From: a virus
Taxonomy: Duplodnaviria; Heunggongvirae; Uroviricota; Caudoviricetes
Direction: 5' to 3' (one strand)
Virus record (IMG/VR): IMGVR_UViG_3300011226_000028
Length of the DNA: 9,262 bases
Position 1 is the first letter of the stretch. Every line of letters starts with the position of its first letter. A program made the position numbers and the translations under genes. A model generated the notes under the pieces. The model saw nothing but the letters and a program-made list of their open reading frames with translations, did no database searches and was not told the DNA's origin. Positions 475 to 9,241 of this stretch are shown here, piece after piece.

Positions 475-930
475 TTACAGATAATTGCGGTAACTGTTAT
501 CCGGGGTGGTTTCCGGGTCAGGCTCCATGCGGGGAATTTCCCGCCATTCCCGCGCCACCGGTGCCGCCCGGCTGGCCGGAACAGTGTCCTGCGGGTAAAT
601 ATCCAGATATTTCTCCCGCCATTTCTGTAATTCCGGGTCTCCGGCCATTTCTTTCAGTACCGCATGCCGGTTTACGGGGCTGCGTTTGAACAGGTCAGGA
701 CGGTCACAGGTAAATTCCCGCAGAAAACGCCCCAGCGGGATGTCTGTGGTGCGCCCGTCAGCGAGGATACGCACAAGGATACTGAATTTACGGCGGTACG
801 GGTTCCAGACAATGTCCGGGCAGCGGTACGGCATTTCCCACGGAATACCGTCTTCCAGAATGCCGACCACGGCCACATCGGGAAAACCGGCAGAACGGTA
901 AATCTCACCGGGCTGGGGAAAATCAAACAT
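475..930 (-). CDS. Hypothetical protein, 151 aa, in the leftward operon
   Basis: ORF in the track; its ATG (930..928) overlaps the stop of the upstream 95-aa ORF in an ATGTTTGA arrangement, suggesting translational coupling. Confidence 0.6.
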   Translation of the reverse strand: MFDFPQPGEIYRSAGFPDVAVVGILEDGIPWEMPYRCPDIVWNPYRRKFSILVRILADGRTTDIPLGRFLREFTCDRPDLFKRSPVNRHAVLKEMAGDPELQKWREKYLDIYPQDTVPASRAAPVAREWREIPRMEPDPETTPDNSYRNYL

Positions 931-1400: not shown

Positions 1401-1789
1401 AAGGCAGTCTCCTTCGAGTAGCAAATAACTGCTATCGCCGGAGTTCTCACGCTCGATGGCGATAGCCCAGACGGGGGTGAGAATACCGGCCTCGAAGAAT
1501 ACCGGCCAGCCCGGAGGCTGCCCCGCCTGAGCTACCATTGACTCAGTGGCATAACATGCGATTGCGAACAGGATCATACCTGCACGGCAAACCACACGCC
1601 ACACCATAATCTGGCGCTCTGTGGCGTTGATTGCGACACAAAAAAAGACGCATGGCGCGTCATATGTCGCCTTCGAGTTACACGGGTTCTCACGCCCGGC
1701 TGCCGATTTTGCGGCAGCGGAAAAACTATATCCGCAAATGCCGGAAAAAGGCAAGCCAGAAAAAGGGAGTTTTTGCAGAGCGGGCATCA

Positions 1790-2056
1790 TCATGCGTCGT
1801 ACCCCCGTTTGCGTCCGGCAATGCGCCCGGCCATCCATGCGGTGATTTCAGAGTGCAGCCAGGCCACATTTTTACCGCCAAGACTCACCTGCGGCGGAAA
1901 TTCCCCCTTACGGATGAGTTCATAGATGGTCGAGCGTGACAGGCCGCACAGGTGCATCACTTCCGGCAGACGTAAAAAACGCTCCTGCGTGATGTCCGGC
2001 AGCGGCATCAGTGGCGTCACAGGGGCAGGAGACGGGGAAGAAAAAACAGCTTGCAT
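1790..2056 (-). CDS. vis: AlpA/Vis-family small DNA-binding regulator (P4 Vis-like excision/regulatory protein), 88 aa
   Basis: Motif [27 protein letters not shown] is typical of AlpA-family helix-turn-helix prophage regulators; 88 aa as I recall for P4 Vis (orf88); GAGG Shine-Dalgarno about 8 nt upstream; position at the head of the leftward operon, divergent from sid. Confidence 0.7.
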
Positions 2057-2598: not shown

Positions 2599-3333
2599 AT
2601 GTCTGACAACACCATCCCTGAATATCTGCAACCCGCACTGGCACAACTGGAAAAGGCCAGAGCCGCCCACCTTGAGAACGCCCGCCTGATGGATGAGACC
2701 GTCACGGCCATTGAACGGGCAGAGCAGGAAAAAAATGCGCTGACGCAGGCCGACGGAAACGACGCTGACGACTGGCGCACGGCCTTTCGTGCAGCCGGTG
2801 GTGTCCTGAGCGACGAGCTGAAACAGCGCCACATTGAGCGCGTGGCACGCCGGGAGCTGGTACAGGAATATGACAATCTGGCCGTGGTGCTGAATTTTGA
2901 ACGCGAACGCCTGAAAGGGGCGTGTGACAGCACGGCCACCGCCTACCGGAAGGCACATCATCACCTTCTGAGTCTGTATGCAGAGCATGAGCTGGAACAC
3001 GCCCTGAATGAAACCTGTGAGGCGCTTGTCCGGGCAATGCATCTGAGCATTCTGGTACAGGAAAATCCGCTCGCCAACACCACCGGCCATCAGGGCTACG
3101 TCGCACCGGAAAAGGCTGTCATGCAGCAGGTGAAATCATCGCTGGAACAGAAAATTAAACAGATGCAAATCAGCCTCACCGGCGAGCCGGTTCTCCGGCT
3201 GACCGGACTGTCAGTGGCAACACTCCCGCACATGGATTATGAGGTGACAGGCACACCGGCACAGCGCAAGGTGTGGCAGGACAAAATAGACCAGCAGGGA
3301 GCAGAGCTGAAGGCCAGAGGACTGCTGTCATGA
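2599..3333 (+). CDS. sid: P4 Sid-like external capsid size-determination scaffold protein, 244 aa
   Basis: ATG at 2599 with GAGGA about 9 nt upstream (the track ORF starts earlier at 2533); MSDNTIPEYLQPALAQLEKARAAH...; position immediately upstream of delta and psu in the conserved sid-delta-psu order; stop overlaps the delta start (ATGA). Confidence 0.8.
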   Translation: MSDNTIPEYLQPALAQLEKARAAHLENARLMDETVTAIERAEQEKNALTQADGNDADDWRTAFRAAGGVLSDELKQRHIERVARRELVQEYDNLAVVLNFERERLKGACDSTATAYRKAHHHLLSLYAEHELEHALNETCEALVRAMHLSILVQENPLANTTGHQGYVAPEKAVMQQVKSSLEQKIKQMQISLTGEPVLRLTGLSVATLPHMDYEVTGTPAQRKVWQDKIDQQGAELKARGLLS

Positions 3334-3830
3334 TTTACTGCCCGTCGTGTGGACATGTTGCTCACACCCGTCGCGCACATTTCATGGACGATGGCACCAA
3401 GATAATGATTGCACAGTGCCGGAATATTTATTGCTCTGCGACATTTGAAGCGAGTGAAAGCTTTTTCTCTGACTGTAAAGATTCAGGAATGGAATACATT
3501 TCAGGCAAACAGAGATACCGCGATTCACTGACGTCAGCCTCCGGCAGTATGAAACGCCCGAAAAGAATGCTTGTTACCGGATATTGTTGTCGGAGATGTA
3601 AAGGCCTTGCACTGTCAAGAACATCGCGGCGTCTGTCTCAGGAAGTCACCGAACGTTTTTATGTGTGCACGGATCCGGGCTGTGGTCTGGTGTTTAAAAC
3701 GCTTCAGACCATCAACCGCTTCATTGTCCGCCCGGTCACACCGGACGAACTGGCAGAATGCCTGCATGAAAAACAGGAACTGCCGCCAGTACGGTTAAAA
3801 ACACAATCATATTCGCTGCGTCTGGAATGA
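3330..3830 (+). CDS. delta: P4 Delta-like late transcription activator (two tandem Ogr-type zinc-finger domains), 166 aa
   Basis: Begins MIYCPSCGHVAHTRRAHF... (Ogr-like Cys cluster) and contains a second copy ...YCCRRCKGLALSRTSRRL...YVCTDPGCG; ATG overlaps the sid stop; lies between sid and psu. Confidence 0.8.
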   Translation: MIYCPSCGHVAHTRRAHFMDDGTKIMIAQCRNIYCSATFEASESFFSDCKDSGMEYISGKQRYRDSLTSASGSMKRPKRMLVTGYCCRRCKGLALSRTSRRLSQEVTERFYVCTDPGCGLVFKTLQTINRFIVRPVTPDELAECLHEKQELPPVRLKTQSYSLRLE

Positions 3831-3903: not shown

Positions 3904-4139
3904 ATGGAAAGCACAGCCTTACAGCAGGCCTTTGACACCTGTCAGAATAACAAAGCAGCATGGCTGCAACGCAAAAATGAGCTGGCAGCGGCCGAACAGG
4001 AATACCTGCGGCTTCTGTCAGGAGAAGGCAGAAACGTCAGTCGCCTGGACGAATTACGCAATATTATCGAAGTCAGAAAATGGCAGGTGAATCAGGCCGC
4101 CAGTCGTTATATTCGTTCGCATGAAGCCGTTCAGCACAT
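3904..4139 (+). pseudogene. psu: psu (P4 polarity suppression / capsid decoration, Rho inhibitor), 5' fragment interrupted by IS3
   Basis: MESTALQQAFDTCQNNKAAWLQRKNELAAAEQEY...HEAVQHI then runs directly into the IS3 terminal inverted repeat at 4140. Confidence 0.8.
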
Positions 4140-4169
4140 TGATCCTACCCACGTAATATGGACACAGGC

Positions 4170-5036
4170 CTAAGCGAGGTTCTGGTTTTCAAATTGTTCC
4201 GGACTGAGGCCGCCACACCAACTGTGCCGCCGCCACCGATTGTAATCACATTCGATATAATTAAACACCGTTGCCCGCATTATTTCCCGGCTGATAAAGT
4301 GTTCTCCATGGATACATTCCACTTTCAGCGAATGAAAGAAGCTTTCCACGCAGGCATTATCGTAGCAGCAACCTTTTGCGCTCATACTTCCACGCAGATT
4401 ATGCCGCTTCAGTTGCGCCTGATAATCTGCTGAACAGTACTGGCCTCCACGGTCCGTGTGAACGATAACGTTCCGGGGCCTCTTACGCCGCCACAGCGCC
4501 ATCTGCAGGGCATCGCAGGCCAGTTGCGCCGTCATGCGTGGCGACATTGACCAGCCAATAACGGCACGTGACCACAGGTCAATGACCACTGCCAGATACA
4601 GCCAGCCTTCATCTGTACGTAAGTACGTGATGTCTCCTGCCCACTTCTGGTTCGGGCCACTGGCGTAAAAATCCTGCTCCAACAGATTTTCTGACACAGG
4701 CAGGCCGTGTGCGCGGTAGCTGACCGGGCTGAACTTCCGGGAGGCCTTTGCCCTCAGTCCCTGACGGCGCAGGCTTGCCGCCACGGTTTTTACGTTAAAG
4801 GGGTAACCCTGAGCACGCAGTTCATCCGTCAGGCGTGGGGCACCGTAACGCTGTTTTGACCGGGTAAAAGCCGCGAGGACAACGCTGTCGCAGTGTTGGC
4901 GGAACTGCTGACGCGTGCTTATCCTTGTCCGCCGCTGACACCACGTATACCAGCCGCTGCGGGCCACCCGGAGCACGCGGCACATTGCTTTGATGCTGAA
5001 CTCAGCCTGATGTTTTTCAATAAAGACATACTTCAT
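4170..5036 (-). CDS. insF: IS3 OrfB (DDE transposase catalytic component; normally made as an OrfAB fusion by -1 frameshifting)
   Basis: 288-aa ORF with DDE-type motifs ([27 protein letters not shown]); overlaps orfA in the -1 frame as in the IS3 family. Confidence 0.85.
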
Positions 5037-5341
5037 TTCAGGCGCTTCGCGAAGTATGTCGCGGCCTTTTGGAGGATAGCCAGCTCTTCATCCCGTTCTG
5101 CCAGCTGGCGTTTGAGACGTGCAATCTCGGTAGACATCTCCAGTTCACGTTCAGAAGACGTCTGCTGATTTTGCTGTTTACTGCGCCAGTTGTAGAGCTG
5201 TGATTCATACAGGCTGAGTTCACGGGCTGCGGCAGTAACACCGATGCGTTCAGCAAGCTTCAGGGCTTCACTGCGAAATTCAGGCGAATGCTGTTTACGG
5301 GGTTTTTTACTGGTTGATACTGTTTTTGTCATGTGAGTCAC
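5033..5341 (-). CDS. insE: IS3 OrfA (helix-turn-helix transposase N-terminal component)
   Basis: [52 protein letters not shown]... matches IS3 OrfA as I recall it; leucine-zipper-like C-terminus; stop overlaps the orfB ATG (ATGA). Confidence 0.85.
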
Positions 5342-5396
5342 CTCTGACTGAGAGTTTACTCACTTAGCCGCGTGTCCACTATTGCTGGGTAAGATC

Positions 5397-5737
5397 ACAT
5401 CAGCATCCGCGACCGGCTGAATGATTTTATGCAGCAGCACGGCACAGTACTGGCGGCCGCACTGGCACCGGAGCTGATGGGCTACAGTGAGCTGACGGCC
5501 ATTGCCCGAAACTGTGCCATACAGCGTGCCACAGATGCCCTGCGTGAAGCCCTCCTGTCCTGGCTTGCGAAGGGGGAAAAAATTAATTATTCCGCACAGG
5601 ATAGCGACATTTTAACGACCATCGGATTCAGGCCTGACGCGGCTTCGGTGGATGACAGCCGTGAAAAATTCACCCCTGCGCAGAACATGATTTTTTCGCG
5701 TAAAAGTGCGCAACTGGCATCACGTCAGTCTGTGTAA
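5397..5737 (+). pseudogene. psu: psu, 3' fragment downstream of the IS3 insertion
   Basis: In-frame translation from about 5402 reads SIRDRLNDFMQQHGTVLAAALAPELMGYSELTAIARN...ASRQSV; the track ORF 5429..5737 is its ATG-initiated portion. Confidence 0.75.
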
Positions 5738-5901: not shown

Positions 5902-5920
5902 GGCGAGGCGGGGAAAGCAC
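5902..5920. other. P2/P4-type cos site (19-nt cohesive-end sequence)
   Basis: GGCGAGGCGGGGAAAGCAC matches the P2/P4 cohesive-end sequence as I recall it; GC-rich context, located just past psu as in P4. Confidence 0.6.
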
Positions 5921-6016: not shown

Positions 6017-7779
6017 TTATTGCGATGCGTCTTCTTTTAAAGCGATGCTTTGTTCTAAAGCTTCTTTTATGCGTTTAACGCATTCTGTTAGTTCAATTAT
6101 GGCTCCGCGTCGAAAAGAACTGTTAATTTTTTTATGATGAGCGTTTATGGCTGAATGTAGCTTCTTAAGGTATGGTAGTTCAGCAGAAAGGTAGTCCGCA
6201 AGATTTGAGAAGTTATAGAGTGATGATAGATGGTTTGAAAACAACTGAATATCGCGAATGGACCAAGTGTTTTTTATTCCATGTATGATTAGGTTTACAT
6301 CTAATGTTTCAAGTGGATTAAATTTGAATTTTGATTGATAAATATCCATATCAATAGCACTCCAACCGTTAACATTCATTTTTTCTTTCAATTCTTTTAT
6401 TTTCTCCTCCTTTATTATATCGCAATATTTATCAAGGAAGTAATTATGAAGTTCATTTCCTTCTCTCCTTAATATATGTGGTGGAATATTATCAATGTTG
6501 GGATTTGATTCTAGGAAATATTCTTTTATTTCTTCATTACTAAAGCTACGTTTGTTTTTTTCAATGGTTTTGTTGGTTAACCCTCTTATGCGAGGGATGT
6601 ATTTTGATTTTGAGAGTCTAATATAGTTGTTTGTAGCGATTAGCCAAGTAGATAGTGTCGGTGATGAAGTTTTTAGTATTACTTTTTTAATTTCATCCAA
6701 ATAATCATTTTCAGGTATATTATACCATTCCGGTTGTTTTAATGTGGCATAATCACTTTTTTTTAAAGGTTCTTGTGAATTGAATATGTATGGAATTATA
6801 TCCTTTTGAGATATCTCATTAAAACAATATGGAACCATTAAGTTGTTATAAGTCATATGAGCAGTGATATTTAAAAGGTTACTCTCTTCTTCGCTTATTT
6901 TATCTGGATCATTCTCAGATGAAGTCGTAAGTGTTTTGAAAGAAGATGTGATATAATTATGATGAAAATCATTCTCTTGATATGAAAATTTCTCTTTTAG
7001 TATTATATGAGCACAAAGTGAAGTGACTAGGTTTTTGATGTCTATATCAGAGATTTTTTGCTCAGGTTCTTGTTTTTCAAAAAGAGGTGTCAATTTTGAA
7101 ATTACTCTATTAATAATTCGTAGGTTTGTTTCTTCGAACCCAATAATAACCTGAGTGATTAAATATTTATGTCTCTCTTCTAATGGAGCCAGTTTTTGCT
7201 CTAATATATCGGTAAGGTTATTAATAGAGAAATATATTTCGTCGCTTACAACTTTTTCTTTATGACTTAATACCTCACTACTCTGCTTTGAAAAGTTACC
7301 CACTAAAATAAAGTCTAACCGATTATCATTTTGATAACTTTGTAGGCAAAAGGTTGCTATTTCATCTCTCAAAGATTGAGGGATTCTTTCTAGATCATCA
7401 ATGACAAAAACNNNNNNNNNNNNNNNNNNNNNNNNNNNNNNGCACCTGAAATGGTAGATATAATTTGTTCTGTCAACTTTCCAGTGCTTTCGTCTTGGGT
7501 TAATGCTGATGCAGCGCTTGAGGTTAAATCCCCAAGTTTTTTTATCTCTGAAGGGGTGTTTAGATACGTTATGCTTAGCATTCTATCTTTAAAATCTTGT
7601 AAACTGTTTAACCCAAGAACAGACAAATAAAAATGACTCGTATCTGAATAAAGTGTTCTAAATTCAGTTCGAAGGAAATATGTCTTACCTACACCCCATT
7701 CCCCATTTATTAATATCAGACCATCACGTTTCTCTTTCAATATACGAATCAATATAGATACTATAGTACCTTTGGTCAT
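6017..7779 (-). CDS. KAP-family P-loop NTPase, about 587 codons, interrupted by a 30-nt N run; candidate anti-phage defence cargo gene
   Basis: Walker A in the KAP-characteristic form GEWGVGKT (N-terminal ORF 7390..7779) and Walker B-like VFVIDDLER just downstream of the gap (extension of ORF 6017..7372); AGGAG with a 5-nt spacer before the ATG at 7779; strongly AT-rich (about 25% GC in a spot count) compared with flanking genes. Confidence 0.7.
7412..7441. other. Run of 30 N (unknown or masked bases) inside the KAP NTPase gene
   Basis: Literal n characters; the reading frames on the two sides differ by one position, so the true gap length is probably not 30 nt. Confidence 1.
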
Positions 7780-7808: not shown

Positions 7809-8984
7809 TTATTTTATTTTTGGATAAAGTAAGTCACTATACCACTGCATCATATGTAATCTTTTCTCTAAATATTGAGCATGATTATAAGTACCTCTTA
7901 TACTGTTTTTATCAACATGTGCTAATTGCATCTCAATCCATGCACTATCAAATCCATGTTCATGTAAGATTGTCGATAATGAATGTCTAAAACCGTGACC
8001 TGTAGCACGTCCTTTGTAACCAAGTAACTCAATTACTTGAGATACGCTTTCTTTTGAAATTGGTTTGCTACGATTGTTCCTTCCAATAAATATGTAGGGG
8101 TAATGGCCGGTAATAGGCTTGAGTTGTTCGAAAAGGGCAATTACCTGAGTAGATAAAGGAACAATGTGTGGCCTACGCATTTTCATCCTTTCTGCAGGTA
8201 TTTCCCATATGCCTTTCTCAAGATCAACCTCATTCCAAGTAGCCAAACGCATTTCCTGCGTTCTAACGCCGGTCAGCATAACTATCTTAGTAGCATTTTT
8301 AGTAATGATACTTCCGGTATACGCTTCCAAATCCTGAATGAAATGAGGTAGCTCTTCAGCGGATAAAAAAGGATGATGTTTTTGCTTAGGAACAGCCAGA
8401 GCGATGGCTAAATCAGGCGCAGGATTGTATTCAGCACGGCCAGTTATGATCGCATAGCGGTAGACTTCACCACATCTTTGCCGCACTTTTCTGGTCTTCT
8501 CTAATGCCCCACGCTTTTCTATTCTTCGCAATACTTCGAGCAGTTCTAATGGTTTAATTTCACTGATAGGGCGTTTACCAATGAAAGGGAATACATCTTG
8601 CTCAAAAGTCTTCATAATTTCTTCTCGATAGGCCACCGTCCAGCGGTCAGCTTTGTTGGTATGCCATTCTCGACATATTGCTTCGAAAGAATTTTCTGTT
8701 GATAGCTTTTGAGCGAGTCTTAAAGCTTTGCGTTCCTCTACTGGGTCAATGCCATTAGCAACCTGCTTACGGGCGATGTCACGCTTCTCACGTGCTTCTG
8801 CGAGGCTTACTAAATCATAGCTGCCAAATGACATTAACCGCGCTTTCCCAGCAAATCTGAAACGGAAACGCCAGCCTTTCGTGCCATCTGGATTGATAAG
8901 CAACGACAGACCTTGTCCATCGTTCAATGTGTATGGCTTGTCTTGTGGTTTTGCACGTTTGATCTGTGTATCGGTTAGAGCCAT
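7809..8984 (-). CDS. int: P4-type tyrosine integrase (phage integrase family), 391 aa
   Basis: N-terminus MALTDTQIKRAKPQDKPYTLNDGQGLSLLINPDG... typical of P4-like integrases; C-terminal catalytic region GHGFRHSLSTILHE...GTYNHAQY (R, H-x-x-R, Y); adjacent to the 3' end of a tRNA gene. Confidence 0.9.
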   Translation of the reverse strand: MALTDTQIKRAKPQDKPYTLNDGQGLSLLINPDGTKGWRFRFRFAGKARLMSFGSYDLVSLAEAREKRDIARKQVANGIDPVEERKALRLAQKLSTENSFEAICREWHTNKADRWTVAYREEIMKTFEQDVFPFIGKRPISEIKPLELLEVLRRIEKRGALEKTRKVRQRCGEVYRYAIITGRAEYNPAPDLAIALAVPKQKHHPFLSAEELPHFIQDLEAYTGSIITKNATKIVMLTGVRTQEMRLATWNEVDLEKGIWEIPAERMKMRRPHIVPLSTQVIALFEQLKPITGHYPYIFIGRNNRSKPISKESVSQVIELLGYKGRATGHGFRHSLSTILHEHGFDSAWIEMQLAHVDKNSIRGTYNHAQYLEKRLHMMQWYSDLLYPKIK

Positions 8985-9146: not shown

Positions 9147-9241
9147 TGGCGGAAGATCACAGGAGTCGAACCTGCCCGGGACCGCTGGCGGCCCCAACTG
9201 GATTTGAAGTCCAGCCGCCTCACCGGAGACGACGATCTTCC
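9147..9241 (-). tRNA. selC: tRNA-Sec (selenocysteine tRNA, selC), 95 nt, serving as the integration site
   Basis: Reverse complement reads GGAAGATCGTCGTCTCCGGTGAGGCGGCTGGACTTCAAATCCAGTTGGGGCCGCCAGCGGTCCCGGGCAGGTTCGACTCCTGTGATCTTCCGCCA, matching the E. coli selC tRNA as I recall it, including the long variable arm and 3' CCA; the integrase gene lies beyond its 3' end. Confidence 0.9.

Follow-up and report, generated by a model that had tools for sequence, protein, structure and literature searches.

The DNA analyzed here, referred to throughout as the window, is a 9,262-nt stretch of a Caudoviricetes virus record (IMGVR_UViG_3300011226_000028) in which the gene psu is interrupted by an IS3 element. 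The locus raises the question of whether the insertion by itself accounts for the state of psu, or whether a further change at the junction would leave the gene out of frame even if the element were removed. By manual count, the initial annotation had found the two halves of psu to be one nucleotide out of frame once IS3 and one copy of a flanking CAT triplet were taken out, and it had offered two explanations for this, namely that the boundary of the element had been misplaced by one base or that psu carried an additional 1-bp change. The answer depends on the exact ends of IS3, on the target duplication, and on the gene that results when both are accounted for.

Ends and coding capacity of the inserted IS3

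We mapped the ends of the element with five identical 1258-bp IS3 copies that stand in unrelated flanks, one on a plasmid and four at chromosomal sites. Similarity to the window broke off at the same first and last IS3 base in all five reference copies, so that the boundaries are fixed independently of psu. Two of the five copies were flanked by 3-bp duplications of their own (GCT/GCT and GAT/GAT). The inserted block opens with TGATCCTACCC at position 4140 and closes with GGGTAAGATCA at 5397, making it exactly 1258 bp long; the final A of its terminal ...GATCA falls at 5397. An alignment to reference IS3, which the initial annotation had proposed as the means of fixing the ends and length, therefore gave 4140-5397, and the right end proved to lie one base beyond position 5396, where it had first been placed.

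The block was 100% identical over positions 1-1258 to many E. coli copies annotated as "IS3-like element IS3 family transposase", and 4088 records had a best match of at least 99% to it. Its termini read TGATC... and ...GATCA and form imperfect terminal inverted repeats, with 28 of the 39 outermost positions matching. IS3A of K-12 MG1655 (315229-316483) was tried as a ruler for the ends and was dropped in favor of the five full-length copies. It is annotated at 1255 bp and is 99.8% identical to the window IS3 over those 1255 bp; compared with the 1258-bp copies, its orfA-proximal end departs from the terminal TGA, and two more bases are substituted. MG1655 IS3A may be a terminally damaged copy.

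Both transposase frames were recovered in full on the strand opposite to psu (Table 1). The start of orfA is the RefSeq CDS start in identical IS3 copies, and the ORF finder returned the same frame as 5033-5341 (99-102 aa), overlapping the 288-aa ORF. An AAAAG motif lies in the orfA/orfB overlap region, and we take it to be the likely programmed -1 frameshift site. On identical IS3 copies, RefSeq annotates a "programmed frameshift". The predicted coding capacity of the element is intact.

Table 1. Annotated features of the 9,262-nt window, in window coordinates
Feature	Position	Strand	Basis or remark
orf106- and orf151-like genes	19-339, 475-930		ORF list
C4/CI immunity RNA	1455-1542	-	Rfam C4 RF01695, 74.3 bits
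isrK and c4-a1b1 targets	1641-1731	-	Rfam, above gathering score
alpA-like gene	1790-2056		PF05930
sid	2599-3333		Colinear with P4
delta	3330-3830		PF04606; colinear with P4
psu::IS3	3904-5737	psu +, IS3 -	
psu 5' part	3904-4139	+	Codons 1-78 and first two bases of codon 79; ORF list
Target-site duplication, left copy	4137-4139		CAT, 3 bp
IS3, complete	4140-5397	-	1258 bp; transposase genes antiparallel to psu
IS3 right terminal inverted repeat (orfB-distal)	4140-4178		Starts TGATCC; comparison of both termini
IS3 orfB (InsF-like, 288 aa, rve/DDE integrase core)	4170-5036	-	PF00665 (E=5e-28), PF13333, PF13276
IS3 orfA (InsE-like, 99 aa, HTH_Tnp_1)	5033-5332	-	PF01527; ATG at IS position 66
AAAAG motif, orfA/orfB overlap region	5066-5070	-	IS positions 328-332
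IS3 left terminal inverted repeat (orfA-proximal)	5359-5397		Ends ...AAGATCA on + strand
Target-site duplication, right copy	5398-5400		CAT, 3 bp
psu 3' part	5401-5737	+	Third base of codon 79 to stop (codons 80-190)
cos 19-mer, GGCGAGGCGGGGAAAGCAC	5902-5920		Identical to P4 left end
AAA/KAP-type ATPase cargo gene	6017-7779	-	psu-int hotspot
Tyrosine integrase	7809-8984		
tRNA-Sec (selC)	9147-9241	-	Adjoins integrase, downstream

Target duplication and the psu reading frame

A 3-bp target-site duplication is typical of IS3. In the window the element is flanked by CAT on both sides, and a single CAT stands at the matching position in intact psu genes. The initial annotation had recognized this duplication and had its left copy right; the right copy, however, occupies 5398-5400 and not 5397-5399. 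The duplicated triplet combines the last base of codon 78 (CAC, His) with the leading AT of codon 79 (ATC, Ile). Between the end of IS3 and the AGC at 5402 we found CATC, four nucleotides, where CATCC had been counted.

We then deleted 4140-5400 (IS3 plus one CAT, 1261 bp) from the locus. The deletion yielded a psu ORF of 573 nt and 190 codons without a stop, the junction reading ...CAG CAC AT + C AGC ATC CGC GAC.... E. coli S1-ESP-02-A (CP145622, WP_001774583.1) carries an intact psu, which the rebuilt gene matched at 573 of 573 positions; phage P4 psu was matched at 566 of 573 nt, with seven differences and no indel. When about 200 bp of flank was included on each side, the rebuilt locus gave one ungapped alignment, at 99.4% identity, to a locus annotated as "phage polarity suppression protein". 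Because the rebuilt psu is uninterrupted and identical throughout to an intact allele, the halves being "one nucleotide out of frame" was a miscount. Simple excision restores the psu frame, and psu bears no 1-bp lesion besides the insertion; of the two explanations first offered, the boundary being off by one was the correct one. Nucleotide alignment to an intact psu, which had been named as the comparison that could overturn the frame shift, showed a precise IS3 with a 3-bp duplication and a restored frame.

The flanks had been taken to be psu, and the rebuilt 190-aa protein confirmed this: it matched PF07455 (Psu) over essentially the full length of the profile (positions 1-181 of 182, E=1.8e-87) and the P4 Psu structure (PDB 3RX6) over residues 1-190 (E=2.8e-119). 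The initial view of psu as divided around codon 79 by a whole IS3 also held, with the cut falling inside that codon. The 5' part is identical to nt 1-236 of the CP145622 psu and has two differences from P4, and the 3' part is identical to nt 237-573 of the same CP145622 gene.

As it stands, the split gene offers two reading frames. The ORF that starts at 3904, whose product opens MESTALQQAFDTCQNNK, runs into foreign sequence past 4139 and stops within IS3 at 4171-4173, giving an 89-aa product of 79 Psu and 10 IS-derived residues; codon 79 still encodes Ile because IS3 begins with T. The sole ORF listed in the 3' part (5429-5737, 102 aa) starts from an internal ATG, Met89 of Psu. No promoter-like site was found on the + strand upstream of 5429, in the IS3 end and the junction, and no Shine-Dalgarno-like sequence was seen by eye before the ATG at 5429. 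Judged by these frames, the locus in its present state is a psu pseudogene, psu::IS3.

Consequences for Psu and origin of the insertion

Cryo-EM shows that Psu touches Rho via the tip of the α1/α2 coiled coil and via the C-terminal helix α7, residues 170-186 (PMC11718236). Psu also decorates P4 capsids and may guard against heat inactivation (PMC3821671). The 89-aa product is without helix α7 and without more than half of Psu. Given truncation at residue 79, functional Psu is almost certainly absent from this satellite, in line with the initial expectation that it would probably be lacking, and Rho antagonism and capsid decoration would most likely both be lost. [quoted passage not shown] We do not expect polarity on other satellite genes. 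In the sid-delta-psu operon psu comes last, beyond it lies cos, and the genes after cos run on the opposite strand; the other satellite genes should therefore be spared.

How widespread the interrupted allele is was followed in several collections. A psu match was present in 1075 of 5426 complete E. coli genomes, and in 1047 of the 1075 a single place covered at least 80% of psu, the remaining 28 having matches that cover less than 80%. In the same 5426 genomes, neither of the two IS3-psu junctions was matched at any place over 80% or more of its query. For the left junction, an exact 34-mer had no match in GTDB species-representative genomes and none in metagenome contigs, and the 89-aa Psu-IS fusion ORF was absent from the gene-position index on exact look-up. 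Zero divergence from the intact allele, together with the perfect duplication, suggests that the insertion event is probably recent, and it is probably private as well.

We consider it very probable that a standard IS3 transposed into psu of a P4-like satellite at tRNA-Sec and produced an ordinary knockout. The element entered psu at nt 236/237, within codon 79 and in the opposite orientation to the gene, and transposition duplicated the 3-bp target (CAT) with no other change. Nothing that we observed speaks against this structure. The interrupted gene would then yield only the 89-aa product, its 3' fragment being without an evident promoter or ribosome-binding site, and the intact-looking remainder of the element would fit a recent insertion.

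Other readings of the junction were weighed against this one. The idea that IS3 brought with it a further 1-bp change, or joined psu imprecisely, such that even precise excision would leave psu frameshifted, has virtually no chance of being correct. The earlier manual count is the one point in its favor, whereas the rebuilt psu has a length divisible by 3, encodes 190 aa without a stop, and equals an intact allele base for base. Moreover, an IS end at 5396 with CAT at 5397-5399 brings stop codons shortly past the junction and clashes with the IS3 terminus ...GATCA that is conserved in the five other copies. The junction could instead be an assembly artefact caused by a repeat-induced mis-join, or a product of transposition during laboratory propagation of the sequenced strain, and its absence from every collection searched (E. 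coli, GTDB representatives, metagenome contigs, and the gene-position index), as well as the two masked N runs in the window, would be in keeping with such an origin. We find this distinctly improbable: a repeat mis-join would not give a perfect 3-bp duplication, two complete IS3 ends, and colinear flanks, and transposition during culture, too, would have produced a genuine insertion, altering the history of the locus but not its anatomy.

It is highly improbable, in our assessment, that a functional part of Psu remains in the 102-aa C-terminal ORF with its helix α7, or that the knockout was selected as a way to remove a Rho-toxic protein and keep the defense cargo. The C-terminal ORF is indeed intact and includes residues 170-186, and peptides modeled on the C-terminal end of Psu are reported to inhibit Rho when overproduced (PMC8141534). 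In addition, psu-less P4-like variants are frequent, and some clades may be able to do without psu (de Sousa & Rocha, PMC8628076). However, the ATG at 5429 has neither a promoter-like site on the + strand nor a Shine-Dalgarno-like sequence before it, and full Rho binding also involves the α1/α2 coiled-coil tip, which is missing from the C-terminal fragment (PMC11718236). Nor was there a sign of selection for the knockout, as 1047 of the 1075 psu-bearing E. coli genomes have an uninterrupted gene and the IS3 allele was encountered once only. We likewise see just a very slim chance that the insertion is functional and not damage, be it a selected domestication, a reversible switch in which precise excision restores psu, or a change that leaves the orphan 102-aa ORF to act as a stand-alone Rho modulator. 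An ordinary IS3 knockout of psu thus remains the reading that we prefer.

Psu::IS3 in this sense is composed of an element and an event of known kinds, and the insertion site alone is unrecorded. It implies no new biology and is of little import past annotation. The proper annotation is psu::IS3, a pseudogene that arose by clean insertion, with 3 bp duplicated and without a frameshift, and the satellite is to be classed as a P4-like element without one core function. Surveys that find P4-like elements via a Psu protein match (as in PMC9122126) could miss or mis-score such an element. The satellite, naturally deprived of psu and otherwise intact, could also be put to use as an existing control in work on the part of Psu in capsid stability and Rho inhibition.

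The satellite and its relatives

The window looks like a P4-like satellite integrated at tRNA-Sec, and apart from psu the element looks intact (Table 1). The P4-like core within the window consists of sid, delta, the split psu, the alpA-like gene, and the integrase, colinear with P4 and with annotated E. coli elements; alpha (primase) lies outside the window, and epsilon is assigned in the window by colinearity only. The P2/P4-type cohesive-end 19-mer of cos is in place, and the 164 bp that separate it from the psu stop codon share 97% identity with P4, so that packaging signals appear to be preserved. The selC gene marks the satellite attachment site, and the window stops about 20 bp past tRNA-Sec. 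The C4/isrK/c4-a1b1 region (1455-1731) overlaps ORFs that RefSeq calls "host cell division inhibitor Icd-like protein" in relatives.

In relatives, the cargo gene of the psu-int defense hotspot, between psu and the integrase, encodes one 588-aa "AAA family ATPase". It matched the PADLOC candidate system PDC-S49 (E=1.2e-14) and, weakly, the KAP P-loop family (PF07693), and its C-terminal 450 aa had no Pfam match. Two N runs in the window, at 2094-2103 (10) and 7412-7441 (30), correspond to 20 and 34 bases in ETEC-2265, their length not being preserved. We considered the cargo ATPase as a second pseudogene and rejected this, as the 30-N run at 7412-7441 replaces 34 bases of the closest relative; masking is the probable reason why the gene appears as two ORFs, 6017-7372 and 7390-7779.

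The right-hand part of the window, which reaches from the 3' end of psu over the ATPase and the integrase to tRNA-Sec, was found at 99.3-99.7% identity in 11 complete E. coli genomes. These include ETEC-2265 (CP023346) and ATCC 8739, whose P4-like satellites at tRNA-Sec carry the same ATPase cargo in the same gene order. In all 11 genomes psu is uninterrupted, whereas in the window it is interrupted. Compared with ETEC-2265, the window has diverged through substitutions and small indels at ~1400-1700 (immunity/leader) and ~2150-2330 (sid-upstream), while the remainder of the element is >99% identical. This pattern suggests that the immunity region is mosaic and may have been exchanged between P4-like satellites.

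The inserted element is the IS3 of Escherichia coli (IS3 family, IS3 group; InsE/InsF), which the window copy equals throughout, so only the insertion site is new. As in P4 itself, psu follows sid and delta and precedes cos, and the rebuilt 190-aa protein differs from P4 Psu (NP_042044, PDB 3RX6) at three residues (S67G, V95A, and A159V). In the window, psu differs in being cut inside codon 79 by IS3 and encodes no full-length protein. Among psu-less P4-like variants, a psu pseudogene stands at the expected place in only 8%, and mostly unrelated genes are found there (PMC8628076). The window resembles the psu-less "Type B#06" P4-like elements (PMC8628076) in that both appear to be without functional psu; unlike most psu-less variants, it falls in the rarer pseudogene class, the cause being a probably recent IS insertion and not the replacement of psu by another gene.
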